DNA of 64,000 nt. Source: an uncultured Candidatus Saccharibacteria bacterium (GTDB taxonomy: Bacteria; Patescibacteriota; Minisyncoccia; Phycocordibacterales; WO2-35-19). Position 1 is the stretch's first letter; every line of letters begins with the position of its first letter. Positions 11,473 to 54,622 of the stretch are shown piece by piece. The translations under genes were made by a program, and so were the position numbers. Location of the stretch: the NCBI GenBank assembly GCA_964489135.1, contig CAZAXK010000001.1, forward strand, positions 20,615 through 84,614. The letters run 5' to 3'. The notes under the pieces are model-generated. The model was not told where the DNA came from and did no database searches. It saw only the letters and a program-made list of their open reading frames with translations.

Positions 11473-11477
11473 TAACT

Positions 11478-15204: not shown

Positions 15205-15251
15205 TCGATGATAGATTTAAATTTTGAGATATAATTTTTGAGATAAATATA

Positions 15252-15632
15252 ATGAGAATACTAGGCATCACAATTCCAGAAGAAAAGCGACTCGAAATCG
15301 GTCTGACCACCCTTTTTGGTGTCGGCCGATCCCGCGCTCAAAAGATATTGAGTGAAGCCGGCGTGGAATGGGGTGCCAAGCCCAAGGACCTCAATACCGA
15401 AAAGGAGAATGAGATCCGCAAGATAGTCGAGAGTCTCCGCATCGAAGGCGACTTGAAGCGTGAGGTTGCCTCCAACGTAAAGCGCCTCAAAGACATCAAG
15501 GCCTACCGCGGATTGCGACATATAAGGAGTCTTCCTGTAAGAGGCCAGCGCACCAAGACCAATTCTCGAACCCGTCGAGGCAATGTTCGCAAGACTGCTG
15601 GTACTGGTAGAAGGGCGGTTGAGAAGAAATAG
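15252..15632 (+). CDS. rpsM: 30S ribosomal protein S13
   Basis: MRILGITIPEEKRLEIGLTTLFGVGRSRAQKIL is the canonical S13 N-terminus. Confidence 0.95.
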   Translation: MRILGITIPEEKRLEIGLTTLFGVGRSRAQKILSEAGVEWGAKPKDLNTEKENEIRKIVESLRIEGDLKREVASNVKRLKDIKAYRGLRHIRSLPVRGQRTKTNSRTRRGNVRKTAGTGRRAVEKK

Positions 15633-15684
15633 AACACGACACCAATACACGAATTCAAACGAATAACACAAATATATAAATAAA

Positions 15685-16110
15685 ATGGGAAAGAAAAGAA
15701 TTGCAACATCAGAACAAGCAGGGGCCGAGGCTTCGCAGGGAGCCAAGTCCGGAGGCAAAAAGAAGGTTGATGCCGGTATTTTGCACGTAGAATCGACTTA
15801 CAACAACACCAAACTCCTCCTGACTGATAAGAAGGGCAACGCGGTTTTGGCTTCGTCGAGTGGCAAGCTTGGATTCAAGGGTGCAAAGAAAGGCACACCA
15901 TTCGCCTCTGCCAAAGTAGGCGAGACACTCGGTACCCTAGCTCACGAAATGGGAGTAAAGGAAGTATCGGTAGTGGTCAAAGGTGTGGGCTCGGGTCGCG
16001 AATCAGCAATCAGAGGATTTATCAGCAAGGGTATAAACCTCACATCAATCAAAGATGTAACGCCGGTGCCTCACAACGGACCGAAGCCCAAGAAACCCCG
16101 TCGCGTATAA
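15685..16110 (+). CDS. rpsK: 30S ribosomal protein S11
   Basis: GILHVESTYNNT...GFKGAKKGTPFA...VKGVGSGRESAIR are S11 signatures. Confidence 0.95.
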   Translation: MGKKRIATSEQAGAEASQGAKSGGKKKVDAGILHVESTYNNTKLLLTDKKGNAVLASSSGKLGFKGAKKGTPFASAKVGETLGTLAHEMGVKEVSVVVKGVGSGRESAIRGFISKGINLTSIKDVTPVPHNGPKPKKPRRV

Positions 16111-40297: not shown

Positions 40298-41552
40298 AAA
40301 AACATTTGCGCTGTTTTTGGCGGTTATCTTTTTTTTAACCAATTGGTCATGGGTTTTTGCGCAGACGGAAGGTGAATTGCGAAGTAAAATCGAAGATCAT
40401 AATACAACTATCAAGAAAATCGAGGAGGAGATAAAATCCTACGAAAAGCAGGTAGACGCCGTGGGTACGCAAGCCAAAACATTAAAAAATGCGATTACTG
40501 AGCTCGAGCTCAGTCAAAAAAAGCTCAACGCGGAAATCCGCAAAAGCGAAGCAAGCATTGCGAAGTCGAACCTTCGTATAAAAGAATTGAGTGGCCAAAT
40601 GACCACCACCGAAGAAAAGATGTCGGTAAACTCGCAGGCCGTCGCTTCAACCTTAAATGCCATGAGGCAAAGTGAGGAACAATCTCTCATTGAGGAAATC
40701 CTTAGCAATCAAAGTATTTCTGAGGTCTTAGACAATTACGAGTCAATTAGCCAGTTCCAAAAGGAGATCCGAGCGCGATCAAAGGAGCTCGCCGTCTTCA
40801 AGGAAGATCTGGCTGATAAAAAAGAAGCGACTGAAAGCGAAAAGGCCAAACTTCTCTCGCTCCAATCAGAGCTCAAAGACCAATACAAGATACTCGACAA
40901 CAGCAAGAAGGAGCGCAACAACCTACTTGCTGTAACCAAAAACCAAGAAGCTGAATACAAGAAAATGCTTGCCCAAAAACAAGCCGAGAAAGCCCGTTTC
41001 GAAAAGGAGCTTTTTGATTTCGAATCTCAGCTCAAGCGAGTCATCGATCCCAAAAGCTACCCGAGTGCTAAAACGGGAGTTCTATCGTGGCCACTAGATG
41101 ATGTCTACATTACCCAAGCGTTTGGCAGAACAGTTGACGCGAAGCGATTGTATACATCAGGCACCCACAACGGCATTGATTTTAGGGCTAGTCGTGGGAC
41201 ACCCATAAAATCAGTTTACTCAGGGGTAGTTGAGGCCACCGGCAACACTGACGAACAGCGTGGGTGCTATTCTTATGGCAAGTGGGTCTTGATCAAGCAC
41301 CCGAACGGCCTTTCAAGTCTTTATGCCCACCTCGACCTCATAAAGGTGGTGCCCAACCAGTCAGTTAGTGTAGGTGAGCTTATCGGCTACTCAGGCCAGA
41401 CCGGCTACGCGACTGGTCCCCATCTTCACCTCACACTTTTGGCGAGCCAAGGCGTAGTGGTCCAAAAGTACTCTTCGAGTAAAAATTGCAAGAATGTCGT
41501 AATACCGATGTCTGACCCGTCCGCTTACTTGGACCCAACACCATATTTCTAA
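40278..41552 (+). CDS. M23 family metallopeptidase with N-terminal coiled coil (EnvC/LytM-like murein hydrolase/activator)
   Basis: Signal peptide, ~250-aa coiled-coil region, C-terminal LytM domain with HNGIDF and GYSGQTGYATGPHLH motifs. Start overlaps the gltX 3' end. Confidence 0.8.
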   Translation: MPYPNYKKTFALFLAVIFFLTNWSWVFAQTEGELRSKIEDHNTTIKKIEEEIKSYEKQVDAVGTQAKTLKNAITELELSQKKLNAEIRKSEASIAKSNLRIKELSGQMTTTEEKMSVNSQAVASTLNAMRQSEEQSLIEEILSNQSISEVLDNYESISQFQKEIRARSKELAVFKEDLADKKEATESEKAKLLSLQSELKDQYKILDNSKKERNNLLAVTKNQEAEYKKMLAQKQAEKARFEKELFDFESQLKRVIDPKSYPSAKTGVLSWPLDDVYITQAFGRTVDAKRLYTSGTHNGIDFRASRGTPIKSVYSGVVEATGNTDEQRGCYSYGKWVLIKHPNGLSSLYAHLDLIKVVPNQSVSVGELIGYSGQTGYATGPHLHLTLLASQGVVVQKYSSSKNCKNVVIPMSDPSAYLDPTPYF

Positions 41553-41583
41553 ATTAAATTAAAAATTTTTTTAAAAATAATTT

Positions 41584-41775
41584 TTGCAAAAAATGAAAAA
41601 TCAAAATAGGGGATTTATAAAAATCACAATCATACTGGTCGTCGCGCTAGTCCTACTCAAGTATGTCTACGACATAGATGTGATAGGCAAGGTCTACGAA
41701 GGATGGCTCTGGATTTGGGGCAGGTACGGAGACTCGATCATGAATGCATGGGAGTGGATAAAGAACAAGATCTAG
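41584..41775 (+). CDS. possible small membrane protein (63 aa)
   Basis: One TM helix (ITIILVVALVLL), Trp-rich C-terminus. No homology recognisable by eye. Confidence 0.3.
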   Translation: MQKMKNQNRGFIKITIILVVALVLLKYVYDIDVIGKVYEGWLWIWGRYGDSIMNAWEWIKNKI

Positions 41776-41965
41776 CAACACGGCTCAAATCAAGAGCGCT
41801 ACATTCGCCCTATAGTATACTACCCAAAAGATATATTGTGCGACGTTACTAATCTTTGGTAGTCGGCCACCCCCTTAGTCATTACACAGCCCAAAATTTT
41901 TTCTCGCCAAAATTTATTTTTTAACATTCTTCCCTATTAAGAAAGCTCACCCATGCCAAGCAAAA

Positions 41966-42043
41966 CAAAAAGCCCCCTGTTTGGCACAGAGGGGCTTTTT
42001 GTTTTTGGCAGGATAGGGGCCATGCGACCCCCTGCCCTACCCT
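41966..42043. terminator. two adjacent hairpins forming a bidirectional terminator between convergent genes
   Basis: AAAAAGCCCCCTGTTTGGCACAGAGGGGCTTTTTGTTTTT (hairpin with A/T runs on both sides) followed by GGCAGGATAGGGGCCATGCGACCCCCTGCC (nested stems GGCAGG/CCTGCC and AGGGG/CCCCT). Confidence 0.55.
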
Positions 42044-42049
42044 TGGATC

Positions 42050-42448
42050 TTATCTATTGACAATGAAGTCGTTGTAGGCCAGAGTTTTGCTCCAGCAAGC
42101 GCCTGAGGACTTCCATGGGCGCACACCATACTTATCGAAAATATATCTCGCATAAGCGGTATTGCCTTCGATCGTAAGGATGTCGAATCCGAGCTTCTTG
42201 GCATCTTCGCCATGATAGTACTCGTTGATCTGCATCACTCCGCGATCGAGCGAATTGACTTCGCCACGTAGGACTTCACCGTTCACATCATACTGCCTGA
42301 ATCGAGATTCGCATTTCGCGATCTCGACCATAACCGGTATGTCGGAGAAATAATTTCTCACATACTCTTCGGCAGTCATTTGTTTCGCTTCGACTGCGAC
42401 CGGCTCATTGCTGAGCGAGGCCGGAATCGAAACTTGATTAGAATTCAA
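42050..42448 (-). CDS. secreted lytic transglycosylase-like (SLT/GH23-fold) lysozyme; frame open upstream to 42538 and encodes a signal-peptide-like segment
   Basis: Catalytic-Glu context AKCESRF, and GVMQINEYYHG resembling the SLT GLMQI motif. The ORF-track start at 42448 is a TTG codon. The in-frame upstream sequence KLNNWLIFGTTALGLLVIAGSISGTL is signal-peptide-like but contains no ATG/GTG. Confidence 0.55.
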   Translation of the reverse strand: MNSNQVSIPASLSNEPVAVEAKQMTAEEYVRNYFSDIPVMVEIAKCESRFRQYDVNGEVLRGEVNSLDRGVMQINEYYHGEDAKKLGFDILTIEGNTAYARYIFDKYGVRPWKSSGACWSKTLAYNDFIVNR

Positions 42449-42783
42449 AGTACCACTTATGCTACCTGCAATGACAAGTAGCCCTAGAGCTGTAGTTCCA
42501 AAAATAAGCCAATTGTTTAATTTTAATCCACACTGCCCTTACCCAAACAGACCTTACACCAAGAGCGTGCGGGAGGTGAAAAGTGAAAGAATCGGAGCGC
42601 GACTCATAAAGTTTGCCCCGCTTTGACACTCTTCGCCTCTCTCATATCTGGCTAAGCGCCTTTCCTGCATAGCAGGATCAGCTCTGCCCAGATAAGCAAA
42701 AATCCAGCATTCACTGGACCTGCTATAATAATAGCACTTTTAACTCTTGCTGTCAATAGTAAAGTGTGGTCTAATTTTGGACC

Positions 42784-45276
42784 CTAAAATTCGATAAAAT
42801 TGGGGTTTAGAGCAAAGTTGGCTGTTACAGTTTTGGCCGAGCTCATAGTAACCGTGCAAGTTCCCGTGCCCGGACACGATCCACCGCCCTGCACCGTCCA
42901 ACCAGTGAATATTCTACCTGAAGCCGGTGTCGCCGTGAGGACAACGTTGGTATCTTGGTCAAAATCTTTCGAACATGTGCCACCACAATCAATTCCCGAT
43001 GGGGAGCTGGTTACCCTTCCCTGCCCTGACTTTAGCACCGTGAGCCCGTACTGATTGGGCACCTGCACACTAACTCTCACGCTATCAACCGAATTAATAC
43101 CGCTCGGCAGGCAGGTTAGGGTGTAAGTTTTATCGCCCGTCAGATTGCCAGATGAGCGACTGCCTGAAGTGCCGGTCCAGCCCGTATCGACAGAACATGA
43201 AGTAGCATTGGTTGAGGTCCAACTTATAGTAGAAGCTGTGTTGTATGGTACAGAGAGCGGACTAGCGGTGATATCAGCGACTGCCGATACGGGCGCGGTG
43301 ACTGTTATATTCCCCAATGAATTCGATTGGGCACAAATATTGGATGAGGAACCGGCAACGTTGGTACAAGATACCGGGAAGGTTCCACCGGTATTGCCCG
43401 CGGTACAATTAAAGTTTGCCGTTGTGCGGGTGGTATTACCGCTATCCCAACTCGAGAAAGCACAGGACGCTCCACCAGATGTCGTCACACCGACAGCATC
43501 GATACCTCTTACCCCATAATCACACTTTACCGTAAATGCCTCGCCAGCCGATAGACTAGTTTTGGAAATACTACTCTTAGAGCTATTGTAGTTTAGAACG
43601 GCGCAGACTGGTGTATCGCCACAAGCATAGGCAACTCCCCCGCTTGCATTACGCACTTGCCAAGTACGGCCGACTTTATCCACAAATCTATATGGCTGAC
43701 CCCAGAGTATGCCGTTGTCTGCACCTTGATCACTCCACCCAGACCAACCGCTACTACGATTTATATTATAAACCCAATTACCGTTAGCCCACGTCGTCTT
43801 TAGAGCAACATTAAGAGACCAGCCAAGAGATAAGTTGAGAGGAAGCGAGGTAACGGCACCAATACCCGTCCAACTCGAATCAAAGTTACAATTGCTATTG
43901 CCGTTAAATTTGCAACTCTGAACATAGGCATTGGTAGTAGCTCCTTGTCCTCCCACAGCGATCACGATCGCATCTTTATATTGGCTGTCTAGAGTACTGC
44001 CGACATATATGCCGACTGGCTGGTAATCAGTCGCCCCTCGATCGTGCAAATATCGCCAAGTGCCATCGCAAACGGCTACCGTTGTTGACTGTGGCATGGT
44101 ACACTTTGCCTCGAAAGCATTTCCATTGCGACGCACTTCCATAATCCTCCCGCTAGAATCAGTAGCACTCTGGGTTGCACCGATAGCACCGGAGTTTGTT
44201 GCCCAACCATATATAGCAGGATATCCGTAAGCGCCTGTATTCGGCATAGTAACCTGATAATCCCAAGTACAAGTGTCACTCATACCATTTAGATACCTAC
44301 AAAATGTTGAGAAATTGCCGAAAGCCGTAGTAAGCTGATTGTACTGGGTATAATATCGCCCATTGTAAGTTGCTTTGAAATACTTTTCGTTGTTGGTAGC
44401 GCCATTGTTCCAAAGTATCCAAGGACCAGAACTTATATCTGGAATAGTGCCCGGCGGTATCTCACGCCACGTCGCATCGCAAACTACTTTGCGCGAGGCC
44501 TTAACAGTGACGGAATAGGTAATGATCTTGGGACATTCGGGATTGTCGCTATCATATGCCTTAATGTCCACACTGTATGTTCCAGGAGTGGTCGTGCGCG
44601 GAGTGATAAACATCGTCCCTGGGGTAGCACCGTTCGAAGTATTCACATTGTAGGTAGAGTCGGAGGTACACGTTGCCCCAACCGGACAGTTTACTATCTT
44701 GGTTATTACAGCAACATCATTCTTCTTAGGTCCACTTGTAATAGAAAAGCTAAGCGGTATCGCCTCATCAATATAACCAGAAACGCTAGTACCTCCCGCG
44801 GCGGTAATATCGAAAACTCCGGTTGGACAAGTTTCTTGTGTGGTTCCGTCGCCACTACTCCCCCCCGAAGTATAGGTAGTTACTCGGCCACAAGGAGCAG
44901 AGCCCAGACTACAGCTCGTGTTGGAGTATGCGTAACTACACCAAGGATTCGAGCAGGCCGATCCAGAAATATATTTGCCAGAATAATTACAATATACTGA
45001 GCACTCACAATACTGTGTTGTGACCGTCTCTCCTGTAGCGGCATCAGTGCTAGATCTAGTCTGACAGTTGACCCATTGCCCAGTGGGACAAACCGGTGCG
45101 GGGGCGGTTGAGGTGTACACACAAGTGCCTACGTCCTCGCAAGTATATCCGGTACATTGCACAGCAGATACTTCGGTAAAGTTCGAAAGGAATCCTCCAA
45201 CAACAAACATTCCTAGGATAATCACAGGCACGAAGATTCGATAATGCACAAAAAAGGATTTGAGTTTTTCTTTCAT
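42784..45276 (-). CDS. large secreted Cys/Thr/Ser/Gly-rich surface protein with C-terminal divergent InlB B-repeat-like domains
   Basis: N-terminal TM/signal (FVHYRIFVPVIILGMFVVGGFL), then about 60 Cys in 830 aa. The C-terminal ~150 aa contain two copies of the G..RV.SSP.GIDCG..C...F......VTLTA.P..G..F.GW...C.G...C.V.M...K.VTA.F pattern. Confidence 0.7.
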   Translation of the reverse strand: MKEKLKSFFVHYRIFVPVIILGMFVVGGFLSNFTEVSAVQCTGYTCEDVGTCVYTSTAPAPVCPTGQWVNCQTRSSTDAATGETVTTQYCECSVYCNYSGKYISGSACSNPWCSYAYSNTSCSLGSAPCGRVTTYTSGGSSGDGTTQETCPTGVFDITAAGGTSVSGYIDEAIPLSFSITSGPKKNDVAVITKIVNCPVGATCTSDSTYNVNTSNGATPGTMFITPRTTTPGTYSVDIKAYDSDNPECPKIITYSVTVKASRKVVCDATWREIPPGTIPDISSGPWILWNNGATNNEKYFKATYNGRYYTQYNQLTTAFGNFSTFCRYLNGMSDTCTWDYQVTMPNTGAYGYPAIYGWATNSGAIGATQSATDSSGRIMEVRRNGNAFEAKCTMPQSTTVAVCDGTWRYLHDRGATDYQPVGIYVGSTLDSQYKDAIVIAVGGQGATTNAYVQSCKFNGNSNCNFDSSWTGIGAVTSLPLNLSLGWSLNVALKTTWANGNWVYNINRSSGWSGWSDQGADNGILWGQPYRFVDKVGRTWQVRNASGGVAYACGDTPVCAVLNYNSSKSSISKTSLSAGEAFTVKCDYGVRGIDAVGVTTSGGASCAFSSWDSGNTTRTTANFNCTAGNTGGTFPVSCTNVAGSSSNICAQSNSLGNITVTAPVSAVADITASPLSVPYNTASTISWTSTNATSCSVDTGWTGTSGSRSSGNLTGDKTYTLTCLPSGINSVDSVRVSVQVPNQYGLTVLKSGQGRVTSSPSGIDCGGTCSKDFDQDTNVVLTATPASGRIFTGWTVQGGGSCPGTGTCTVTMSSAKTVTANFALNPNFIEF

Positions 45277-45280
45277 AATG

Positions 45281-45796
45281 TTACTTGGTTACTGACACCT
45301 CGACGTAAACATCCTTGGTTGATGCGTTCTCTGTAATAACAACCTTGAGCAATCCTTCGAAGCCCTCTTTCTTCGCCATATACATTTTTATTTTCGGCGT
45401 ATTAAGAGAACTAAGCTCGTCTTGCTTTAGGTTGAAGGTTACCTTCCATTTTTTATCAGCAAAATACTTTTCGAAAATTTTGGCATTTTCCTCAACAGTT
45501 TTTTTCGAAAGATACTTATGTATACTCTGCGTCTCCGATTGTGGTTGCCAAGCAGAATTATAGAAATTATTTTGGTTTTCACTATTTTCGAGCACAATAC
45601 CTTTTTCTAGAGGTAAGTCATCGGGTAAGCCAATTGGGAGTTCGGTTTGCTCAACGACTTTGGTTGTACTCTTGACTGTCGGGTCTAGGGGTACCCCCTC
45701 TATCCCCTTCTGCCACGAGCCGGTCCGGTAGAGCACAAGCAAAACAACAATGACGATGATCGAGAGTAACAACAAAACTTTTTGCCCTGTAGTCAT
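45281..45796 (-). CDS. hypothetical membrane-anchored protein
   Basis: N-terminal TM (VLLLLSIIVIVVLLVL), then a soluble domain. Five bp downstream of the 830-aa surface protein gene, so probably co-transcribed. Confidence 0.5.
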   Translation of the reverse strand: MTTGQKVLLLLSIIVIVVLLVLYRTGSWQKGIEGVPLDPTVKSTTKVVEQTELPIGLPDDLPLEKGIVLENSENQNNFYNSAWQPQSETQSIHKYLSKKTVEENAKIFEKYFADKKWKVTFNLKQDELSSLNTPKIKMYMAKKEGFEGLLKVVITENASTKDVYVEVSVTK

Positions 45797-45894
45797 TTGT
45801 ATAAATTATACCTGCAAAATGCCACCCCGTCGGAGACGCCTGTGGAAAAGAAAGTGGTCCGTCTTGTCCCCCACTTATCCCCAAAATACCTTGC

Positions 45895-45973
45895 TTGACA
45901 AAAGCAAAAAAAGCTATATAATTAAGCCAGTTTCATCGTTATTTGAAATAATTCGTCTCTTTTAAGAAGGAGG
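45895..45973 (+). promoter_or_regulatory. consensus sigma-70 promoter (TTGACA-N16-TATAAT) plus strong Shine-Dalgarno (AAGGAGG) upstream of the subtilase gene
   Basis: TTGACA 45895-45900, TATAAT 45917-45922, AAGGAGG 45967-45973, 7 nt before ATG 45981. Confidence 0.55.
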
Positions 45974-45980
45974 AGCTGTT

Positions 45981-47975
45981 ATGCTCTGGTTAGTTGTAGT
46001 GTTTTTTGCAACCTTCCCGGGGCTCGCCTTTGGCCAGCTCCAAACAAGTAACAAGATCCAGCTGACTGACTTGCAGTGCCTTGCGACACTCACGGAAACA
46101 CAATACCGTGGGACGCAAGGATTGTGGGCCAATGTGCCCCGTGAGCAGGTCAGCACGAAGCCCGAGCTTTTCGGGGCAATCCTGCCCGGCTCGGCGAAGT
46201 TTGAGTGGATCGAGCCCAACCTCCCTTACAAGGGAACGGTGGCTCGCGCCAAAATCGAAGATATCGGTGCCGACAGATGGGTCGTCTACGTCCCCCAAAA
46301 GGGACTTGGATGCGACTTACTACAGAAAAGTGGTGGAAAAAAGGTGGTTGAGTCAGCGCGCGTAAGCGCGGTCGTGTACTCGACGCAAACCCAAACACCA
46401 GCCGTGTCTGCGGCAACGCAGCAGAGGTTGGTGCAGGTGGGACTCGCTCCCATCCTACCACTTACGGCAACATCCTCATCGACGACCCTTCGGGGTATCG
46501 TCGTTGTGGATTCCGGTGTCCAGGTAGGTAATCCGCAGCTTCATCAGCGTGTGGATCCCACCAACTCCGCTTCGTTCGTCGGAGGCACCGCCTTCGACGA
46601 CAGGGCCGGACACGGGACGGAGGTCGCTGAGATCATCGCCGGTCGCACGGCAGGGTTCGTGTCATCTACACCGATAATTTCTTATCGAGTGCTCGACACA
46701 GTTCCGCGTGCCGACGGCGAAGGTAAAATTCTGGTGGGGTCGGAAGCACTTGTGCTCCGGGCCCTGCTCCGTTTGCACTTGCTCCCGTATGAGCGACTGG
46801 TCGTGAATATGTCGTTGCAATTCTGGGGCGACCCAGAAATGTGGCGACTTGCGATCGGATCGCTCAAAGATCGAGCCACCTTCGTGGTCTCGGCTGGGAA
46901 CGCCTCTAGTGGGGTTGAGCCAAATTCAAATTGGCTCCCCTGCTCGCTCTCGAACCTCGAGAATTTGATCTGCGTTGGAGGCACCGATGGTGCTGACCGC
47001 AAGATCGAGTTCTCAAACTTCGGGCCGGCCGTCGAGATCGGCGCTCCGGCTGTCGTCGAGACATCTCTCGGCACGGTGGCCGGCACATCTTTCTCCGCCC
47101 CGCAAGTCGCGGGAACAGTCGGGCTCATCCTTGAGCAGACTAGCGAGAATTTCTCGCCGGCAATGCTCAAGAGCTTCGCGCTTGGCGGACGCTTCTCGGG
47201 ATACCTGCAAGGTGTCTTCGAGGAGCCAGTGGTGCTGAACGCCACTTCCGCCCTCGCAATCGCTCGCCGGTGCGCATCCGGCAAATGTTCCTCCTCTTCC
47301 CTCTCCCCTTTCTCAATAACTGGGGTTGAGGGCACTTGGTCCGGATCTTCCAAGTTCACGTACAGTGACTTGGTGACGATCCGCGGCACGTCACTCGTGG
47401 ACCGCGTCTACGAGCAAGGAGAAGTTGGGACCATGCCCCTTCGGGTCATGGTCAACGGTTACCATGAGGAAGTAACCGTGCTGAGGGCCACGCCCGAAGC
47501 GATCGAGATCGTCCTCCCGTCGATGTTCCGAGGTTCGGTCTGGGCGCAAGCTCAGGGTCCGGCCCTCGGAGGCGAGAGCATCCTTGCTCTCGTCCGACTC
47601 GTCGACGGGGTCCCCGTGCCAAGCACGGCGACAATCGCCACCCGCTTCCGCCCGGAGCTTGGATCCCCCGCCGTGGGGCTCATCGCTCGCGCGGACGGCA
47701 CCACGGCCGGACCGGACAATCCGATCCGCGCCAACGAAACCATCCAAATCTTCCTATCGGGCCTCGAGGCGTTCACCGCCTCCCAGGTACCGGTGGAAGT
47801 AGAGTTCGGAGGAGTCTCTCAAAAGCTCCTCCCGGCGGCCACCCCCATACAAGGGGTGTACGTGGTATTCGTTGAGACCCCTAAGGTCTCCGGAGCCTAC
47901 GGGCTCACGGGACGGGTCTCCGCCAGTAGTTCTTCTTTCGACTTCGGCGTCAACTATGACGCCGGGGTTGAATAA
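45981..47975 (+). CDS. secreted subtilisin-like serine protease (peptidase S8) with C-terminal extension; GC-rich, likely horizontally acquired
   Basis: Signal peptide MLWLVVVFFATFPGLAFG. Catalytic triad contexts VVDSGV (Asp), HGTEVAEIIAG (His), GTSFSAPQVAG (Ser). Sampled 60-nt windows give about 55-68% GC, against about 42-45% in flanking genes. Confidence 0.85.
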   Translation: MLWLVVVFFATFPGLAFGQLQTSNKIQLTDLQCLATLTETQYRGTQGLWANVPREQVSTKPELFGAILPGSAKFEWIEPNLPYKGTVARAKIEDIGADRWVVYVPQKGLGCDLLQKSGGKKVVESARVSAVVYSTQTQTPAVSAATQQRLVQVGLAPILPLTATSSSTTLRGIVVVDSGVQVGNPQLHQRVDPTNSASFVGGTAFDDRAGHGTEVAEIIAGRTAGFVSSTPIISYRVLDTVPRADGEGKILVGSEALVLRALLRLHLLPYERLVVNMSLQFWGDPEMWRLAIGSLKDRATFVVSAGNASSGVEPNSNWLPCSLSNLENLICVGGTDGADRKIEFSNFGPAVEIGAPAVVETSLGTVAGTSFSAPQVAGTVGLILEQTSENFSPAMLKSFALGGRFSGYLQGVFEEPVVLNATSALAIARRCASGKCSSSSLSPFSITGVEGTWSGSSKFTYSDLVTIRGTSLVDRVYEQGEVGTMPLRVMVNGYHEEVTVLRATPEAIEIVLPSMFRGSVWAQAQGPALGGESILALVRLVDGVPVPSTATIATRFRPELGSPAVGLIARADGTTAGPDNPIRANETIQIFLSGLEAFTASQVPVEVEFGGVSQKLLPAATPIQGVYVVFVETPKVSGAYGLTGRVSASSSSFDFGVNYDAGVE

Positions 47976-47981
47976 CCAAAA

Positions 47982-48018
47982 GGTCCAGACCGCTTCGGCG
48001 TCTGGACCTTTCACCTTT
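47982..48018 (+). terminator. rho-independent terminator of the subtilase gene
   Basis: GGTCCAGAC-CGCTTCGGC-GTCTGGACC is a perfect 9-bp stem with a UUCG-containing loop, followed by TTTCACCTTT. Confidence 0.7.
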
Positions 48019-48081
48019 CCCCTTCGTAATAGAAGAGGGTCACCCTCTTCCATTGGAAAAATGTGGTGTAATTTTTATGCT

Positions 48082-48774
48082 CTAAAGCTCGGCCTCAATA
48101 ACCTTTTCGAATTCAGCAAAGGGTAGGGCTCCCACCACGCGTTTACCATTTATAAATATTGTCGGGGTGCCGTTCACCTGTGCCTTCTCACCATCAGCGA
48201 TATCACTCTTCACAATGTTTGCTGTCTCTCCCGAATCAAGACATTGATTGAATTTTTGCGCATCGAGTCCGAGATTAACAGCGTATTTTTTCAGGTCAGT
48301 GGTACTGAGCCCCGAGCCGTCAGATCGCGTGCTGGCAAAAAGCGTATCATGATATTCGGAGAATTTGCCCTGCTTATAAGCACACTCCGAGGCCTCAGCG
48401 GCCTTCTCGGCAAACTGATGAATCGGCAATGGGAAATGTCGAAAAACTAATTTGGCTTTGCCGGTATCTACATACTTCTCCTTGATTTGTTTGTAAGCTC
48501 CAGCCCAAAAGCTCTGACAGAATGGGCATTGAAAATCCGAGAAGACTACTATCTCGACTTTGCCGGAGCCCAATGTAGGCGCGTCTTTTCTTTTGGCTAC
48601 ATCTACTTGCTCTGGAGGAGTATCGTTACTTTGCTGTCCCGCATTTTGTGTTCCTCGATTGGAAGATCCGCTTCCATTCAAACTCAAAAAAATACTCGCC
48701 GCTATTATGACCGAACCAACTAAAATACTTGCCGGTACTGACCATTCATTTTCGTTTTTGTTGAAGATACCCAT
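48082..48774 (-). CDS. DsbA-family thiol:disulfide oxidoreductase, membrane-anchored
   Basis: N-terminal TM, thioredoxin-fold CPFC active site (VVFSDFQCPFCQ), and the cis-Pro region of DsbA/BdbD-like proteins. Confidence 0.8.
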   Translation of the reverse strand: MGIFNKNENEWSVPASILVGSVIIAASIFLSLNGSGSSNRGTQNAGQQSNDTPPEQVDVAKRKDAPTLGSGKVEIVVFSDFQCPFCQSFWAGAYKQIKEKYVDTGKAKLVFRHFPLPIHQFAEKAAEASECAYKQGKFSEYHDTLFASTRSDGSGLSTTDLKKYAVNLGLDAQKFNQCLDSGETANIVKSDIADGEKAQVNGTPTIFINGKRVVGALPFAEFEKVIEAEL

Positions 48775-48794
48775 TGTTCTAAATCGTTTAACTT

Positions 48795-50222
48795 TTAATT
48801 ACCGCTCGCATACTCTACTGTATCACCAGCTTCTAGACCGGCTACAATTTCGCTCAGGCCGTCGCTACCCATTATTCCGGTCTTGACCTCGACTTTGGTA
48901 GTCGCCGTCCCGTCGAATTTATTGACGAAGGTTTTGTCGCCTTCCTTTATAAGTGCATAGCTCGGCAGAGTAACCACGCCATCTTTGCGCGCCGTTTCAA
49001 TATTGAGGTTACCAGTCATTCCGCTTTTTAATCGAGAGTCTGGTTTGACCGAAACGCGGGTCTTGTAATTGACCACCCCGTCAACCAAAGTTTCGCCTGG
49101 TTCTATATATACTACTTCGCCCTCGAATACATCCGACGGGAAGGAGTCGAACTCGATCCTGACTTTATTGCCTACCTGTACCTTGCCAATATTAACTTCC
49201 GAAATATTGGCCTCAATGCTAATCTGCCCTTCTGAAATGATAGATACGAGTCTGCTACCCGCGGGCGCGATAGAACCAACCTTGGCATCCTGGAGAGTGA
49301 TGGTACCAGCAAACGGAGCGATTATTTTTGATTTGTTAATCGAGGCCTCGATACCAGCGATTGAAGCATTGATCTGATCGATCCTTGCTTGACCAACACT
49401 GCCGACACTGCCGATCTGACTCACTGATTCTTTGGTGTTTATGATCGAAGTACGCGAGGTACTAACCGCTGAACGGGCGCTATCGATAGCCGTTTTATAA
49501 CCAGCGACAGTAGATTCGTAGGCAAAGTCAGCAGAGGTAAATGAGTTTACTGCATAAGCCATAGTGTCCAAAAAGTCCGAGATCTTGTTCATGCGGGCTA
49601 CCGCTCGATCTGCATAGACTTCGGCGTTTTGATCAGTCAAAGTGAGTAGTTCATTTTGCCAGAGCACGAGCTCGGCTTCGACATCACGTCTCTTACCATT
49701 GATCTCAATCGAGAGATCACTCGGAACATTGAAATAATGGACATAGTTCCCATCAGTAAACTTTACTTCAAATACAGGGTTGGTGCGCGGTTGCTTAAAG
49801 AATTGGTCGGCTTTGTTGCGCACAGCATTGTCGGCCGAGGCAAAACCCTCTCGTATACTTGAGGCCAAAGACTCGCGACTACCACCAAGAGTCGCTCGCT
49901 CTTCTGCAAGAGAGGCCTTTTCTTTTGCAAGACTAGCAAGCTCGCTTGAAATATCTAGCTCAGCAATAACTTCTCCTTGTCTCACGGTATCCCCAACCTG
50001 CTTGTAGCTTCTGACTACCCGACCAGTACGATCGAAACCAAGGTCAACGTTGTTGTCGGCTTTCACCTTGCCGGTTACGACAATTTCTTGCACCACACTT
50101 CCTGTGGTGGCTGTCAAATATTCCTTGCCATTTTGACCATTGCGCATTTTAATACCGATGACCACCGCAACCAAAATCACAACCCCTAAAATTATTTTTT
50201 TCTTGGTAAAAAATCTTTTCAT
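48795..50222 (-). CDS. HlyD/MacA-family periplasmic adaptor (membrane fusion protein)
   Basis: N-terminal TM anchor, lipoyl/beta-barrel segments (GKVKADNNVDLGFDRTGRVV..VGDTVRQGEVIAELD), long coiled coils, C-terminal barrel. Twelve bp upstream of the ABC ATPase gene. Confidence 0.8.
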   Translation of the reverse strand: MKRFFTKKKIILGVVILVAVVIGIKMRNGQNGKEYLTATTGSVVQEIVVTGKVKADNNVDLGFDRTGRVVRSYKQVGDTVRQGEVIAELDISSELASLAKEKASLAEERATLGGSRESLASSIREGFASADNAVRNKADQFFKQPRTNPVFEVKFTDGNYVHYFNVPSDLSIEINGKRRDVEAELVLWQNELLTLTDQNAEVYADRAVARMNKISDFLDTMAYAVNSFTSADFAYESTVAGYKTAIDSARSAVSTSRTSIINTKESVSQIGSVGSVGQARIDQINASIAGIEASINKSKIIAPFAGTITLQDAKVGSIAPAGSRLVSIISEGQISIEANISEVNIGKVQVGNKVRIEFDSFPSDVFEGEVVYIEPGETLVDGVVNYKTRVSVKPDSRLKSGMTGNLNIETARKDGVVTLPSYALIKEGDKTFVNKFDGTATTKVEVKTGIMGSDGLSEIVAGLEAGDTVEYASGN

Positions 50223-50234
50223 TTTTTTATTCTA

Positions 50235-50924
50235 TCACAACTTTACCTCGCTAGGGCTTCCGTCAGCCACAATATGGCCATCGGCCAATTTTACCACCCG
50301 ATGAGTCAACATGGCATACTCGGGCTCGTGGGTCACCATAACGATAGTTTGACCCTCTTTGTTCAGGTCGATAAATGTCTGCAAAACCGTGTTGGCTGTT
50401 TCAGTGTCCAGGTTCGCGGTCGGCTCATCGGCAAAGATGATTTTGGGATCATGGCTTATAGCTCGTGCGATCGAGACTCGTTGTTGCTCACCGCCTGAAA
50501 GTTGGTTCGGCAAGTTGTTCAACCTCTCTCCAAGACCAATCTTCGCAAGCGCCTTCTTGCCCTTGGCATAAGCATCCACCTGTTGTAGACCTTGCATTAA
50601 GAGAGGCACCGCCACATTTTCGAGCGCAGTGAGCTCGGGCACCAAAGCATAATCTTGGAAAACATAGCCAAGCTCGCGCAGTCGAAAATCTGTGCGTTCT
50701 TCCTCACTCAACAAAGAAACGTTGGTCCCATCCAGAATTATGTCGCCAGAATTTGGTCGATCCAAAATTCCTATCTGATGAAGCAGGGTCGACTTGCCCG
50801 AACCAGACCGCCCAATTATCGCAATAAACTGTCCCTGCTTAACTTCCAGATTCAGATTTTTGAGCACCACCAATTCAGTGCTTCCAGTCTTGTATGCTTT
50901 TGTGAGGTTGGATACTAAAATCAT
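50235..50924 (-). CDS. ABC transporter ATP-binding protein (MacB/LolD-type)
   Basis: Walker [10 protein letters not shown], signature [15 protein letters not shown], Walker B IIFADEPT. Confidence 0.9.
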
Positions 50925-50928
50925 ATTT

Positions 50929-52209
50929 TTATCTGCCTAATATAGAGTCCAAAGTATTGCGTTTGACAACCAATCGCGCGGGGATAAATCCGGCAATAAC
51001 AGTGGCTATTATAAGAAATAGCGCTCGCAAAAGAGTATTCGGTACTTCAGCCACCAAGATACCGTCAGAAAATGGGAAGTTGATCGGGTTGGCTGTGATA
51101 TATGGTACCAAAAGCCCGTACAAAATGAGTAGCCCAAGCAAAATACCGAGCCCAGCGTAAAATATCGATTGGAAAATATAGGAGATCTCGATTGCCCGCG
51201 AGCTGATGCCGATGCCCTTGAGAATACCGATGAACTTTCTTCGGGTGATTGCATTGATGAAAATCACGATAAAGATAGTGATCGAGGCCACAACGAGCCC
51301 GATCGAACCGACGACGTTACCAAGGATCGCAAAGGTGTCGATCATGTCTTTGATAAATTTTGGTAAGGATTCCTCAAAGGTCTGCACTCGAGCAGTCTGC
51401 CCCACCCCGCTGTTCAGCAATGCTTGCTTTACCACTGCTGGATCGCTTCCAGGCTTTAGAATTATCGCAATTTCATCGACATTGTAATCGCCTCGCCCGA
51501 TAAGAGGGCGCAGACTTTGGTCAAGCATGAGTATGCGCTGGTCGATATCGGTTTTGCTTTTGATAACCCCTTTGAGTATGACTTCTTTCGTATTGCCATT
51601 TACCGTGATTCGCACCCTATCCCCAATCTTTACATTTTCGAGCAAGTTGAGTCCTGGCGAATCGATATCTAAATATTTTTTAAGCATATTAGCCCCCACA
51701 ATGATGGAATCAGTGTCTTGATTGGTAAGATAGCTACCTTCAACAATTTTTGAAGAAATGCCAGTCGCTCGATCTTCCATTTCCGGATCGATACCGGCCA
51801 CGATCCCACCCGCCACATTTGGATCATCGGTAAGTCGAACTCGGGTTTTGTAATTGGCCTCGACTGACCCAGATTCTACATAGCGAGCGGTGTAAGTTTC
51901 TACCCACGGCAGGCCCTTTATAACACTGATGATCGATTGACTGTTCTCGATATAACTTTTCTTCGGTAAATTGGAGATAAATATGTCTCCCGAATAATAT
52001 TTTGAATATACCTCGACCGAGCCCTGTATAAGGCCGACGAGTATCCCTCTCACCACCACCAAATTCAGGAAAGTCAGGGTCATTACGAAAATAATCAGAG
52101 CGGTGGTCGCCTTGTTCGATCTTCGAACCTGCCGAAGCGCCAAGAAAAATCCCAAGTAGAGGGATGTAAAAAAACTTGCGTTCTTCTTTTGAGTCTGCGT
52201 TTCAGCCAC
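50929..52209 (-). CDS. ABC transporter permease, FtsX/MacB-like
   Basis: One N-terminal TM, large extracytoplasmic domain, then three C-terminal TMs (FtsX-like topology). Four bp from the ATPase gene. Confidence 0.8.
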   Translation of the reverse strand: MAETQTQKKNASFFTSLYLGFFLALRQVRRSNKATTALIIFVMTLTFLNLVVVRGILVGLIQGSVEVYSKYYSGDIFISNLPKKSYIENSQSIISVIKGLPWVETYTARYVESGSVEANYKTRVRLTDDPNVAGGIVAGIDPEMEDRATGISSKIVEGSYLTNQDTDSIIVGANMLKKYLDIDSPGLNLLENVKIGDRVRITVNGNTKEVILKGVIKSKTDIDQRILMLDQSLRPLIGRGDYNVDEIAIILKPGSDPAVVKQALLNSGVGQTARVQTFEESLPKFIKDMIDTFAILGNVVGSIGLVVASITIFIVIFINAITRRKFIGILKGIGISSRAIEISYIFQSIFYAGLGILLGLLILYGLLVPYITANPINFPFSDGILVAEVPNTLLRALFLIIATVIAGFIPARLVVKRNTLDSILGR

Positions 52210-52227
52210 AAAACTATTGTAGCATAT

Positions 52228-52680
52228 TTACTTCAACCCTTTACAGTTGGAGGCGGGGGTGTAGCCGGCTTCCCGAGCCTCTTTAATAGTATTGAAAGTT
52301 ATTTTGTTCTTGTCAGAAATCTGCTTGGCTCCGGCGCACCACGGGTAGTGGTACTTGGTGCCATTTTTGGATGCGACTACTTGCCCTGAGTCTGTCGAAG
52401 GGGCCGTTTCAACTGAATCGCTCGACGCCCCCATGACCTCTCCGGAACTGCTTTTTTCGGTCCCCTTCTCTTGCATTATCACCCTCACTGGCTCCCTCGC
52501 CCCCTCTATTTTAGACAGTCGCCCCAAAACAAAGCTGAGCAAACCGATCAAGACCACGCAAAGAGCCACAAAATACCGGCTGGCCAAAAAGCTTTCCAGG
52601 GTCCTCCAAAAGGTCGGTTTCTCCGCCCCCTCAAGCCCTTGGAGATCAAAATATTCGCCCCCACTTGCGTTTTCTGCCAT
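52228..52680 (-). CDS. membrane-anchored protein with C-terminal Ada-like zinc-binding domain
   Basis: TM helix ([14 protein letters not shown]). C-terminus [13 protein letters not shown]...NKITF...[11 protein letters not shown] matches the Ada N-terminal Zn-binding pattern (F.RPSC...EN..F....EA.AAGFRPC). Confidence 0.5.
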
Positions 52681-52703
52681 CTTGGTTTAATATTAGCACC
52701 ACT

Positions 52704-52976
52704 ATGGCTCATAAAAAAGCTGCGGGTACAACCAAAAACGGGCGCGATTCCAACGCGAAATATCTCGGCATAAAGATAGCTGACGGGGGTTTTGCCACAG
52801 TCGGCTCTATTATTGTCCGACAGCGTGGTACTCGTATACTCCCTGGTACGAACGTACAGGTCGGTAGAGATCACACCATTTTCGCTACCAAGGACGGCAA
52901 GGTCAAAATAAGCGACCGCAGGAAGGTTCACTTCGACGGCACAACTGTTACTAAGAAGGTTGCAAGTGTAGTATAA
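52704..52976 (+). CDS. rpmA: 50S ribosomal protein L27
   Basis: [24 protein letters not shown]...[26 protein letters not shown] is canonical L27. Start at ATG 52704. Confidence 0.9.
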
Positions 52977-53394
52977 ACTCACCTTTCACTTTCCCTATCT
53001 GAACCAGTATTTTGTGATCACCAATCTCCTTGATTGGTTTTTCTATTTTCAAAAATTCCGGATCTAGCTCAATCTTTAGTTCATCTTTCAACAATTGCGA
53101 GATTTCTTCGGGATGGACCTGTTCAAAAAGATGTCCCTTTTCGTTGGCCTTCTTCTTCATGGAAAGATCGGCTCCACCCAATACTTCAATTGAGCTTTTG
53201 GCGAGCGATTCTTGAATTTGCTTCTCGGCTTCCAGAGAGGATTGTTTCAGTTTGGCTCTTTCTACTGCCTGTGGAGTTGCAAATTCGGCTTTTTTATTCG
53301 GGATAAGAAAATTTCGGGCATAGCCATCCTTCACCTCTTTCACCTCCCCTTTTCTTCCGACGCCGGCCACATCTTGCACAAAAATTACTTTCAT
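52951..53394 (-). CDS. rplI: 50S ribosomal protein L9
   Basis: [40 protein letters not shown] is canonical L9. The 3' end overlaps the rpmA 3' end by 26 nt (convergent). Confidence 0.85.
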
Positions 53395-53404
53395 TTGTTT
53401 TGTA

Positions 53405-54622
53405 TTATTTGCTTAGTAAGTATTCTATGGCCTTTTGAAGCTGGGGATCGGCGCCATTTTTGGTATTTTCGGGAGTGATCTCAACCTTGATATCGGGGGC
53501 AAGCCCGCCATTAGAAATCGAATTACCATTGGGAGTTAGCCAGTGAGCAACGGTAACTTTGAGCGAGGTCTTGTCGGTAATGGGTAGAAGCTCCTGCACC
53601 GAACCTTTACCAAAGGTCTGGTGGCCGATAAGTACCGCTTTGCCATGCTCACGCAAGGCACCGGCAAGAATTTCTGAGGCCGAGGCTGATCCTTCATTCA
53701 CGAGGATCGCCATCTTCAGCCGATCAGTAAACACGTCATAGCCCTTGCTTCGATAAACTTTCGGCTCACTCTTGCCACCAAAGTCTTCCGTCACCACCAC
53801 TTTGCCGGATGGCAAGAACCAGCTTGCCATATCCATCGCCGCCTCAAGGTAACCCCCCGGATTATTACGTAGATCTATGATGAGCTTATCGCTTCCCGAT
53901 TCGACAAATTCGCGCAAAGCCGAACGGAAAAGATTTGGCGAAACAGCCGAAAAATTATAAAGACTGATCACAAACACGCCTTCTTTGGTTTGCTTCGTGT
54001 CCACCGTTGGTATTTCTATTTTGGTTCGGACCATGGTCTTAACCAATGGCTCCGAAACTCCCTCTCTCATGAAAGTAACCACGACTGGCTCCCCTATTTC
54101 GCCTCGGATCATGGTGATCGCTTCATCAGACGTTAGCCCCAAAACAGATTTGCCATCTACCGCTATCACCCTATCTCCAGCCTTGACTCCCGCCTTGTCT
54201 GCTGGCGTTCCTTTCAAAGGAGCGATGATCGTGAGATACCCATCTTGCATGCCGATTTCCATTCCCACTCCACCAAAGCTACCGCTTATCTCCTGTTCAA
54301 ACGCCTCGGATTCAACTGGTGGGAAAAAGACTGTGTAAGGATCGCCATATGAAGCAGCGAGACCCTGGATCGCCCCCCACATCTTATCCTGCTCGGTCAA
54401 CTCGAAGGTTGTGGTCGAAGCGGGGGCAAACTTTTCTTCCAAAGTACTCCAAACATTCCAAAATGGACCCATGTCGACAGGAACAGTGCTAGTCGAATTT
54501 ACGATAAAGGCCGGCACGGAGCTCCGACGACTATCCGCCCCAAAGAGGAAGCCAGCCCCAAACATGGCACCAGCCAATACCGCGCTCACTATTATTTGAG
54601 TGTATCTCTCATTTATTTGCAT
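53405..54622 (-). CDS. carboxyl-terminal processing protease (S41 family) with PDZ domain
   Basis: PDZ region ([40 protein letters not shown]) and S41 catalytic region ([12 protein letters not shown]; [11 protein letters not shown]). Confidence 0.85.

Follow-up and report, generated by a model that had tools for sequence, protein, structure and literature searches.

Attachment to other microbes is the presumed way of life of bacteria of the Candidate Phyla Radiation (CPR; Patescibacteria); to our knowledge, almost nothing is known of the surface proteins used for attachment in members outside Saccharibacteria. Described systems with comparable genes are of several kinds. In lactococcal PrtP/PrtM, the gene for a cell-envelope S8 proteinase is divergent from the gene for a membrane-anchored maturation protein. 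MacB-type (type VII) ABC exporters work with an adaptor and include Bacillus subtilis YknXYZ, Streptococcus pneumoniae Spr0693–0695 and Escherichia coli MacAB. Docked enzymes are carried by a scaffold in the cellulosome, and the phase-variable vlp/vsa loci of Mycoplasma have a shared promoter and leader. Here, we describe positions 42050–52680 of a 64 000-nucleotide stretch (contig CAZAXK010000001.1 of assembly GCA_964489135.1; hereafter the window), in which the gene for an exported subtilase (S8) is divergent from that for a small membrane-anchored extracytoplasmic protein of 171 amino acids (aa), with a shared control region, as in PrtP/PrtM. The region differs from PrtP/PrtM in that the 171-aa protein has no peptidyl-prolyl isomerase/PrsA or other recognisable domain (a maturase role is a candidate, by analogy), S8 has no LPXTG or wall anchor and the small gene is co-transcribed with that for a large Cys-rich protein of 830 aa, which has no counterpart there. 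On balance, we consider it somewhat likely that the region comprises two separate things: a backbone operon for a MacB-type exporter, and an accessory cassette of four genes (DsbA, S8, 171-aa and 830-aa) making cell-surface proteins. The original prediction had placed all of these genes in one module; the link between protease, Cys-rich protein, small membrane protein and DsbA stands, and that to the exporter, the lysozyme-like gene and the Ada-like gene does not.

Nine open reading frames (ORFs) were checked on the window letters. The coordinates and strands, and the gaps of 12 bp (HlyD/ABC) and 4 bp (ABC/FtsX) on which the prediction had been built, were all correct; the other gaps are 18 bp (Ada-like/FtsX), 20 bp (HlyD/DsbA) and 4 bp (171-aa/830-aa). 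The features are given below with the evidence for each; L-numbers (L003–L029) label the loci compared with the window, of which there are 20 or more.

42050..42448, minus strand: lysozyme-like (SLT_3/SLT-like) gene, backbone; sub-threshold SLT_3/SLT matches, invariant motif, directly after HlyD in L007, L010 and L011.
42501..42756, minus strand: promoter and conserved leader of the lysozyme-like gene, right-hand backbone boundary; promoter match, conservation in seven loci.
42784..45276, minus strand: 830-aa exported Cys-rich, β-rich surface protein (predicted); Flg_new_2, 36 Cys, homologues.
45281..45796, minus strand: 171-aa protein with N-terminal membrane anchor and no Cys; hydropathy, homologues beside S8.
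45797..45980, no strand: divergent control region of S8 and the 171-aa gene; promoter, ribosome-binding site (RBS), conserved in L023 and L024.
45981..47975, plus strand: 664-aa pre-pro-subtilase S8, GC 0.60; Pfam, AlphaFold2 (AF2), catalytic residues.
47979..48050, no strand: pair of stem-loops where the S8 and DsbA genes converge; minimum free energy (MFE), junction identical in L003.
48082..48774, minus strand: membrane-anchored DsbA-like oxidoreductase with CPFC motif; PF13462, PF01323.
48795..50222, minus strand: HlyD/YknX-like membrane-fusion adaptor, backbone exporter; TIGR01730, YknX-type Pfam marks, in all relatives retrieved.
50235..50924, minus strand: ATPase of the backbone exporter, an ABC protein of the MacB/LolD/FtsE group; ABC_tran.
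50929..52209, minus strand: FtsX-domain permease with MacB-like topology, backbone exporter; PF02687, hydropathy.
52228..52680, minus strand: 150-aa single-pass membrane protein with Ada_Zn_binding-like ('sunset'-like) C-terminal domain; sub-threshold matches, transmembrane (TM) segment 27–59.

Hydropathy gave a single N-terminal hydrophobic segment in all proteins save the ATPase, and a MacB-like multi-TM plan for the permease. A 16 kb contig of Logan SRR12762304, an independent assembly, is collinear with the window gene order, and the DsbA/S8 junction was also found in SRR12762303. The arrangement is therefore not an assembly artefact, and mis-assembly as the origin of the GC-rich S8 gene was ruled out on the same grounds. 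Rfam gave no matches in 41500–53500, and no direct or inverted repeats flank the cassette edges.

The extent of the cassette was defined by comparison with relatives. With HlyD as a probe, nine close relatives were retrieved among Paceibacteria/Zambryskibacteria-like metagenome-assembled genomes. In L006, L007 and L009–L011 (HlyD 43–47% identical to that of the window, 44–45% for L007, L010 and L011) the order is CysS–CorA–S41–L9–L27–Ada-like–FtsX–ABC–HlyD; in L012 the backbone genes are the same starting with S41, and additional DNA separates L9, L27, the Ada-like gene and FtsX from one another. The lysozyme-like gene comes after HlyD in L007, L010, L011 and L012, and is followed by M23 and then GltX in L007, L011 and L012 (the L010 locus stops short of both). 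Its promoter begins just downstream of HlyD in L007, L010 and L011; in L012, an unannotated 385-aa tRNA-synthetase-like ORF lies between the two. Matches to DsbA, S8, the 171-aa protein or the 830-aa protein were absent from L006–L012. Since these backbone relatives are without the four genes, positions 42784–48774 (∼6 kb) are, by gene order, an inserted accessory cassette that reaches exactly from the HlyD stop to the lysozyme-gene promoter; on the same comparison, the Ada-like, FtsX, ABC, HlyD, lysozyme-like, M23 and GltX genes are the syntenic backbone of a Paceibacteria-like CPR lineage. Gene-order conservation had been named beforehand as the point on which the one-module claim could fail: the S8, 830-aa, 171-aa and DsbA families were found together in other loci, and the backbone was found without the cassette in L007, L010, L011 and L012.

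In the closest relatives (L004, L005 and L024), HlyD is 66–72% identical and is followed by DsbA, as in the window, with other content past DsbA; L004 and L024 encode a 100% identical NYN protein, yet their content after DsbA differs. The HlyD/lysozyme site is therefore plastic. DsbA sits 20 bp behind the exporter in this sub-lineage and is probably co-transcribed with it. L004 and L005 are the two closest GTDB relatives. In L005, two small ORFs lie between HlyD and DsbA (11452–12143).

The cassette genes recur elsewhere. Seven loci have any flank around S8: the window and the six given below.

L024: lysozyme-like ← 185 aa ← 836-aa (38 Cys) ← 163-aa ← divergent → S8, 4.5 kb of extra genes, ← DsbA ← HlyD ← ABC ← FtsX.
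L025 (locus GC 0.50): 1302+-aa (36 Cys) ← 165-aa ← divergent → 637-aa → 94-aa → S8, convergent ← DsbA ← 1103-aa surface-type; no exporter.
L026 (neighbours' GC 0.29): Cys-rich N-terminus ← divergent → S8, convergent ← 163-aa (171-like).
L027: 171-like ← divergent → S8.
L028 (149 kb contig): 804-aa (32 Cys) ← 168-aa ← divergent → 675-aa → S8, convergent ← DnaJ, DnaK, GrpE, ribosomal proteins; no DsbA, no exporter.
L029: S8 → convergent ← 603+-aa (25 Cys).

S8 stands beside an 830-like and/or a 171-like gene in all seven, and the other neighbours differ. It is next to or clustered with an 830-like gene in six of the seven; L027, with a very short flank, shows the 171-like gene only. Direct adjacency of the two is counted for five of the seven (divergent in four, convergent in L029); in L025 and L028, another gene intervenes within the cluster. 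Homologues of the 171-aa protein lie beside S8 in L024–L028, and one was also found in L004. DsbA is adjacent to S8 or within 4.5 kb of it in three loci: it adjoins S8 in the window and in L025 (which has no exporter) and is 4.5 kb away in L024. The S8-bearing genomes span GC 0.40–0.51. Identities to the window proteins in L024, L025 and L028, respectively, are 57–60, 40 and 32% (830-like), 54–56, 44 and 31% (171-like) and 43–46, 43 and 34% (S8); DsbA is 69–71% identical in L024 and 53% in L025, and L028 has none. All cassette proteins thus diverge in one rank order (L024 > L025 > L028), which fits co-inheritance. Between the window and L024, the backbone proteins are 90% (FtsX), 89% (ABC) and 72% (HlyD) identical and the cassette proteins less so; judged by these identities, the cassette evolves faster than the surrounding genes, the pattern expected of host-facing proteins. 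Because it recurs in other ultra-small (CPR) bacteria, the cassette probably builds a cell-surface protein complex. The literature searched describes no such conserved cassette in CPR, nor the two protein families (830-aa and 171-aa) or the co-variation of scaffold and partner set out below; the components belong to known superfamilies.

Between S8 and DsbA of L024 (9730–10878), an MvdD-type ATP-grasp ligase gene lies beside a 40-aa ORF (…TTSGTWDDCDASDVD) that looks like a graspetide (microviridin-like) precursor. Microviridins are serine-protease inhibitors.

S8 matches Peptidase_S8 (PF00082) over residues 174–398 with 76.9 bits (cut-off 21.8), and consists of a signal peptide (1–18), an I9-like propeptide (∼30–130), the catalytic domain and two C-terminal β-sandwich domains. 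Asp177, His211, Asn307 (oxyanion) and Ser370 are invariant in ten S8-family sequences. The AF2 model has a predicted local distance difference test score (pLDDT) of 81; its best Foldseek match is unprocessed pro-subtilisin E (PDB entry 3whi; 424 columns, TM-score on the target 0.77), covering propeptide and catalytic domain. Pro-Tk-subtilisin is also matched and fervidolysin, with the same four-part plan, is listed too. A profile search of the PDB gave subtilisins with E values down to 1e-39; the Pfam I9 model gave no match on the propeptide. As far as sequence and model indicate, S8 is an intact enzyme, and the earlier call of a secreted S8 subtilase was upheld. A type VII secretion system mycosin identity (TIGR03921) was rejected, the match being partial (55.4 bits; cut-off 278.75) and the sole hydrophobic segment N-terminal. 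S8 resembles fervidolysin (PDB entry 1r6v), pro-subtilisin E and Pro-Tk-subtilisin (PDB entry 2zwo) in its signal peptide, I9-like propeptide and Asp–His–Ser triad, and fervidolysin-type pro-subtilisins in its two C-terminal β-sandwich domains and length (∼660–670 aa). It differs from them in identity (∼20–27%), in a propeptide unseen by Pfam and in its C-terminal part, assigned to Soli_cterm by homology; the family also differs in being tiny and in occurring, in all contexts seen, in CPR-like genomes and one gene cassette. Word-indexed searches by sequence and by profile gave one true relative. An exhaustive HMMER search over 1.84 billion representative proteins gave ∼10 representatives: six at E < 1e-30 (query included) and about five more at ∼30% identity, most of them near full-length.

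The aligned C-termini of six S8-family members score 41.8–113.5 bits against TIGR03437 (Soli_cterm; cut-off 29.05), and the window S8 is given the same label because its C-terminus is homologous to theirs within the alignment (A6). The S8 promoter (TTGACA-16-TATAAT, 45895–45922) matches the consensus at 12 of 12 positions and the RBS (AAGGAGGAG, 45967–45975) lies 5 nt before the ATG, in agreement with the consensus promoter and strong RBS predicted. On the minus strand, a TATAAT lies just upstream of the 171-aa ATG. The stem-loops after S8 fold with an MFE of −37.4 kcal mol−1 (z = −5.64); the first, with a U-rich tract behind it, forms a strong S8 terminator.

The 830-aa protein contains 36 Cys, not the ∼60 first reported; most other window proteins have 0–8. 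An N-terminal signal or anchor is followed by a 'type A' Cys module (∼39–150), Ig-like parts and one Flg_new_2 domain (PF18998, a divergent InlB B-repeat; residues 746–824, 40.1 bits, cut-off 23.6). The single C-terminal copy is likewise found in five homologues, so that the claim of InlB-B-repeat-like C-terminal domains holds for one such domain, above the cut-off, and not for several. Few full-length relatives of the family were found. Directly after Flg_new_2 follows a tail of the form ...ANF(A/I)(L/V)(N/D)PN(F/Y)(I/K)EF-stop (window 42784–42810, minus strand, ending ...NPNFIEF), which is kept in all 830-like proteins with a visible C-terminus (window, L021, L022, L024, L028 and L029). The tail may act as a signal for sorting, anchoring or recognition; we know of no C-terminal signal of this form. 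PDB profile searches gave no solved relative of the family and nothing credible for the type-A module, and none of 117 pattern matches for the family in JGI metagenome contigs was confirmed. The type-A module is common to the 830-like proteins clustered with S8 (that of L028 judged by eye). In L021 and L022, which have no S8, the same 830-like body carries another N-terminal module; in L022, it is paired with a non-protease Soli_cterm protein (β-propeller-like, sub-threshold Pfam). Another large surface protein, of 1707 aa, is encoded on the minus strand at 56980–62103, 4 kb beyond the region; it is exported, with Laminin_G_3 (ConA-like lectin) and two PG_binding_1 domains and 12 Cys.

The 171-aa protein has a single N-terminal TM segment and no Cys, in keeping with the small membrane protein predicted. 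No known family was found in Pfam-type and equivalog libraries, and a PDB profile search gave only spurious dynein matches. The 171-aa and 830-aa proteins are probably co-translated, given the 4 bp gap between their genes. DsbA matches Thioredoxin_4 (PF13462; 113.2 bits) and DSBA (PF01323; 76.6 bits), both above cut-off, and has a CPFC motif and an N-terminal membrane anchor, as had been proposed; the equivalog models were not reached. Mycobacterium tuberculosis DsbA is a membrane-tethered DsbA-like oxidoreductase of a monoderm (PMC3853704). The window DsbA resembles that type in its Thioredoxin_4/DSBA fold match, CPFC motif and N-terminal tether and differs in falling short of the equivalog models and in being encoded next to a 36-Cys client candidate.

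From these components the likeliest way of working can be proposed, based on gene neighbourhood for function, interaction, cleavage and localization alike. The cassette proteins, each with one N-terminal hydrophobic segment, would be exported by Sec. DsbA would oxidize the 36-Cys 830-aa protein, a putative disulfide-stabilized surface scaffold or adhesin, which the 171-aa protein, as membrane-anchored partner, would hold or assemble at the membrane. S8 would autoprocess its propeptide and then act on the cell surface with the scaffold, probably docked to its N-terminal Cys module.

Several points weigh against this account. The cassette is not invariant: no DsbA lies within 10 kb in L028; the 830-like gene of L021 has no S8, 171-like or DsbA gene nearby and no exporter; in L004, DsbA and a 171-like gene are present but the next ORF is another GC-rich one; and L025 and L028 encode an extra 637–675-aa protein ahead of S8. 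Some of the contigs are short, and there absence often means not seen. The sample of seven loci is small and was found via S8, and 830-like genes without S8 are poorly sampled: of the seven loci with an 830-like gene, the partial one of L026 counted, two lack S8. The C-terminus of the window S8 gives no TIGR03437 match, being too diverged to score. AF2 modelling of the 830-aa protein from three sequences gave an unusable model (pLDDT 38), so that the label 'scaffold or adhesin' derives from composition and a single Ig-like domain. Lastly, DsbA lies behind the exporter in four genomes, and a DsbA–exporter link is possible.

S8 could instead be a maturation protease that removes or cuts the N-terminal Cys module of the 830-aa protein to activate, release or anchor it, which was the core of the original prediction. 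Its place next to or clustered with an 830-like gene in six of seven loci would suit this role, as would the type-A modules, which no 830-like protein outside an S8 cluster was seen to have; subtilases dedicated to processing the products of adjacent genes exist (LanP for lantibiotics, mycosins in ESX loci). Four observations speak for the other side. In L022, a non-protease Soli_cterm protein occupies the same divergent position, so the pairing needs no proteolysis; L025 and L028 have a protein of this kind besides S8; no cleavage motif was identified; and two extra β-sandwich domains, as in fervidolysin, are usual in exoproteases that stay on the surface or bind substrate. We consider this account unlikely. 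Docking is favoured over cleavage because the L022 partner is a non-protease and the N-terminal module changes with the presence of S8, and a role for S8 as mere maturation protease is less likely than co-display with the scaffold.

It is also conceivable that the genes are not coupled at all, the HlyD/lysozyme site being a plasticity hot spot at which secreted-protein genes travel as linked accessory DNA. The site does differ between the near-identical strains of L004 and L024 and holds the tRNA-synthetase-like ORF in L012; 4.5 kb of unrelated genes separate S8 and DsbA in L024, and a DUF6624 gene is 97% identical in L005 and L021 in different contexts. Against this, the same families are adjacent in L025, L026 and L028 despite S8 identities down to 26–34%, different GC and unrelated flanks, and hitchhiking would leave the change of the scaffold N-terminal module with the partner gene unexplained. 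This explanation, too, appears improbable.

A more specific form of the surface-complex reading can be put forward tentatively, although as a whole it is rather doubtful: a CPR-specific modular surface display, in which a disulfide-rich scaffold (the 830-aa family, with its invariant C-terminal tail) held by the 171-aa family would carry swappable Soli_cterm-docked enzymes, either a subtilase or non-protease Soli_cterm proteins, and its N-terminal module would co-vary with the enzyme bound. The enzyme genes of several loci have a promoter core and signal-peptide pattern in common and look as though they were swapped GC-rich cassettes. The promoter, RBS and leader/signal-peptide pattern of S8 are kept in L023 and L024, with the entire divergent intergenic region kept in L024, and in L005 and L021 the promoter core TTGACAAAAnCAAAAAAAnCTnTATAnT, with a leader like GL.(F/Y)(G/A)QL, also stands at the head of an unrelated family of 714-aa proteins. 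S8 and the L005 member of that family are not similar by direct BLASTP; the link consists only of promoter core, leader pattern and Soli_cterm domain class. This suggests, at the sequence level, exchangeable cargo placed behind one conserved start module. The S8 promoter pattern had no exact matches in JGI metagenome contigs. By analogy, the locus is like the cellulosome and vlp/vsa in having a large surface protein whose N-terminal module varies with the neighbouring enzyme gene, and enzymes of different catalytic type that share Soli_cterm, promoter core and signal-peptide pattern; unlike them, it shows no cohesin, dockerin or lipoprotein signatures, and the comparison serves as a working analogy.

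In the window, the S8 promoter core (CTTGACAAAAnCAAAAAAAnCTnTATAnT) lies at 45890–45922 and the signal-peptide part at 45981–46040; elsewhere the start module lies at 1–160 (L023), 4940–5100 (L024), ∼14990–15190 (L005, minus strand) and ∼1830–2000 (L021, minus strand). The DUF6624 genes lie at 15023–16073 (L005) and 1835–2645 (L021); the 97% identity is at the nucleotide level, and the adjacent promoter region is 86% identical. Their neighbours, which are 714-aa-family genes, and the wider contexts differ, which hints at a recent exchange of this small block.

The backbone exporter was characterized by the same libraries. HlyD (TIGR01730, 133.7 bits, cut-off 94.9; HlyD_D23 and HlyD_3 also above cut-offs), the ABC ATPase (ABC_tran, PF00005, 116.5 bits) and the FtsX permease (PF02687, 39.7 bits) all pass curated cut-offs, which confirms these three earlier calls. 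The permease has TM1, an extracytoplasmic loop of ∼220 aa and three further TM segments (hydrophobic segments ∼33–68 and 289–417). A 4-TM FtsX permease with a large TM1–TM2 loop, a cognate ATPase and a HlyD-family adaptor in one operon are the features of a MacB-type exporter, so the proposed YknXYZ/MacAB-like exporter fits in kind and gene set; at the equivalog level it does not, with scores of 71.1 bits for MacA (cut-off 342), 207.4 for MacB (966) and 232.6 for LolD (307.75). It is like YknXYZ, Spr0693–0695 and MacAB in its adaptor, separate ATPase, 4-TM permease with large outside loop and tightly packed genes. It differs from them in being, in this lineage, a conserved backbone operon set beside ribosomal-protein genes, and in the Ada/sunset-like gene that comes first in most relatives. 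ATPase identities are 84–90% in L004, L005 and L024 and 67–71% in L006–L012. A nearly identical 133-aa ORF separates FtsX from ABC in L004 (6988–7389) and L005 (8848–9249), where the window has 4 bp. The Ada-like gene lies upstream of FtsX in L006, L007 and L009–L012 (shifted in L012) and not in the closest relatives L004, L005 and L024. Its 150-aa product is a single-pass membrane protein, as predicted; the Ada-type zinc ribbon did not hold, since Ada_Zn_binding (PF02805) scores 17.5 bits (gathering score 23) and the domain, extracytoplasmic and C-terminal to the TM segment, bears a weak likeness to 'sunset' and has just two Cys for four ligands.

The lysozyme-like protein scores below threshold for SLT_3 (18.1 bits, cut-off 27, E = 0.0037) and SLT (16.3 bits, cut-off 21.3, E = 0.0071), SLT_3 being sub-threshold in all seven homologues (best E = 4.7e-4). 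Seven sequences share invariant C46-E47-S48 and D68-x-G70-V-M-Q-I-N75, that is, the catalytic Glu in an E-S motif and a downstream G-x-M/L-Q-I; alignment to c-type lysozyme is weak (E = 0.22). By these motifs it is assigned at the level of the lysozyme superfamily. Of the secreted lytic transglycosylase-like enzyme first described, the lysozyme motif is retained, whereas SLT lies below the Pfam cut-offs and the ORF as delimited has no signal sequence. The reading frame runs upstream (42449–42529, minus strand) into a hydrophobic segment, 'L.LNN(R/W)LIF.TTALG...IA.S', conserved in the window, L007, L010, L011, L012, L021 and L024 (L024 at the nucleotide level). After the preceding stop, the segment has no in-frame ATG, GTG or TTG in the window, L007, L010, L011 and L012; L021 has an in-frame GTG, and the segment has a conserved ATT in frame. 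Translation thus probably begins farther upstream, at ∼42529, and the conserved segment without a canonical start suggests a non-canonical start codon; only in this way would the protein carry an export signal. The promoter (TTGACA-17-TATTAT, 42756–42728) matches at 11 of 12 positions and is followed by a terminator-like hairpin (42721–42700; GTCCAG-loop-CTGGA, then a U-run). The leader (∼230 nt in the window, ∼210–290 nt overall) is conserved in seven loci (alignment A9) and also holds a second helix with some compensatory changes, a TCGCGC box that is almost invariant (TCGC invariant) and an invariant block spanning the putative start of the gene. The leader is not matched by Rfam and could act as a so far unannotated RNA that regulates a wall-hydrolase gene in cis.

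These two parts bear on whether the region could be a single integrated secretion/maturation module, with the exporter moving the cassette product, a toxin or a peptide and the lysozyme-like enzyme opening the wall. The tight spacing from the Ada-like gene to DsbA (18, 4, 12 and 20 bp) and the place of DsbA after HlyD in four loci would agree with this. However, the exporter and the lysozyme-like gene occur together without any cassette gene in L007, L010, L011 and L012, L025 and L028 have the cassette but no exporter and L021 has an 830-like gene but no exporter, all cassette proteins have ordinary Sec-type N-termini, and a promoter and long leader of its own, conserved whatever lies upstream, precede the lysozyme-like gene. 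The single module is thus very improbable, being largely refuted by synteny at the sequence level. As the backbone occurs without the cassette and the cassette without the exporter, the adjacency of exporter and lysozyme-like gene is one of synteny and not of a shared module; within the favoured two-part reading, and with the same modest confidence, the exporter would be a general envelope transporter that neighbours the cassette by chance of location.

The GC content of S8 was compared across loci. The gene has GC 0.598 and GC at third codon positions (GC3) of 0.683, against GC 0.41–0.49 for its neighbours. GC3 values for S8 and its neighbours are as follows.

Window: S8 0.68, neighbours 0.44–0.51.
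L025: S8 0.63, neighbours 0.41–0.57.
L026: S8 0.59, neighbours 0.21.
L027: S8 0.56, neighbours 0.18–0.33.
L028: S8 0.49, neighbours 0.26–0.37.
L029: S8 0.57, neighbours 0.43.

S8/Soli_cterm genes exceed their neighbours in almost every locus, by up to +0.38 (L026), with L024 within the neighbours' range; other Soli_cterm genes are also GC-rich. The excess holds though the S8 members are 26–52% identical and co-diverge with their neighbours. Since it is a trait of the S8 family across genomes, the anomaly is not evidence of a recent one-off acquisition; the atypical GC first noted is real, and the label 'foreign' is not supported. A recent arrival of S8, new to the lineage and taken from Acidobacteria or another GC-rich donor, is highly improbable: its GC of 0.60 and GC3 of 0.68 against ∼0.46, its C-terminal domain, of Solibacter type by homology, and its nearest non-family subtilases (∼30% identical over a third of S8) would fit, but the family occurs at 26–52% identity in the same cassette of seven other CPR loci, co-diverging and GC-rich relative to its resident genomes, and the promoter, RBS and signal peptide are kept with L023 and L024, together with the divergent intergenic region in L024. 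An ancient transfer of the S8 domain or gene into CPR is possible.

In place of a loosely drawn neighbourhood there is now a distinct and testable four-gene unit; its S8, 171-like and 830-like genes are found again in several lineages of CPR, and DsbA in three loci. The exporter and the lysozyme-like gene are dropped from the model, which spares follow-up effort. The lasting GC3 excess of one secreted-enzyme family across genomes of varied base composition is a small puzzle of genome evolution. To read the cassette as a host 'attack apparatus' is speculation; if the modular display described above were true, it would be a candidate host-contact or host-digestion surface of episymbionts.

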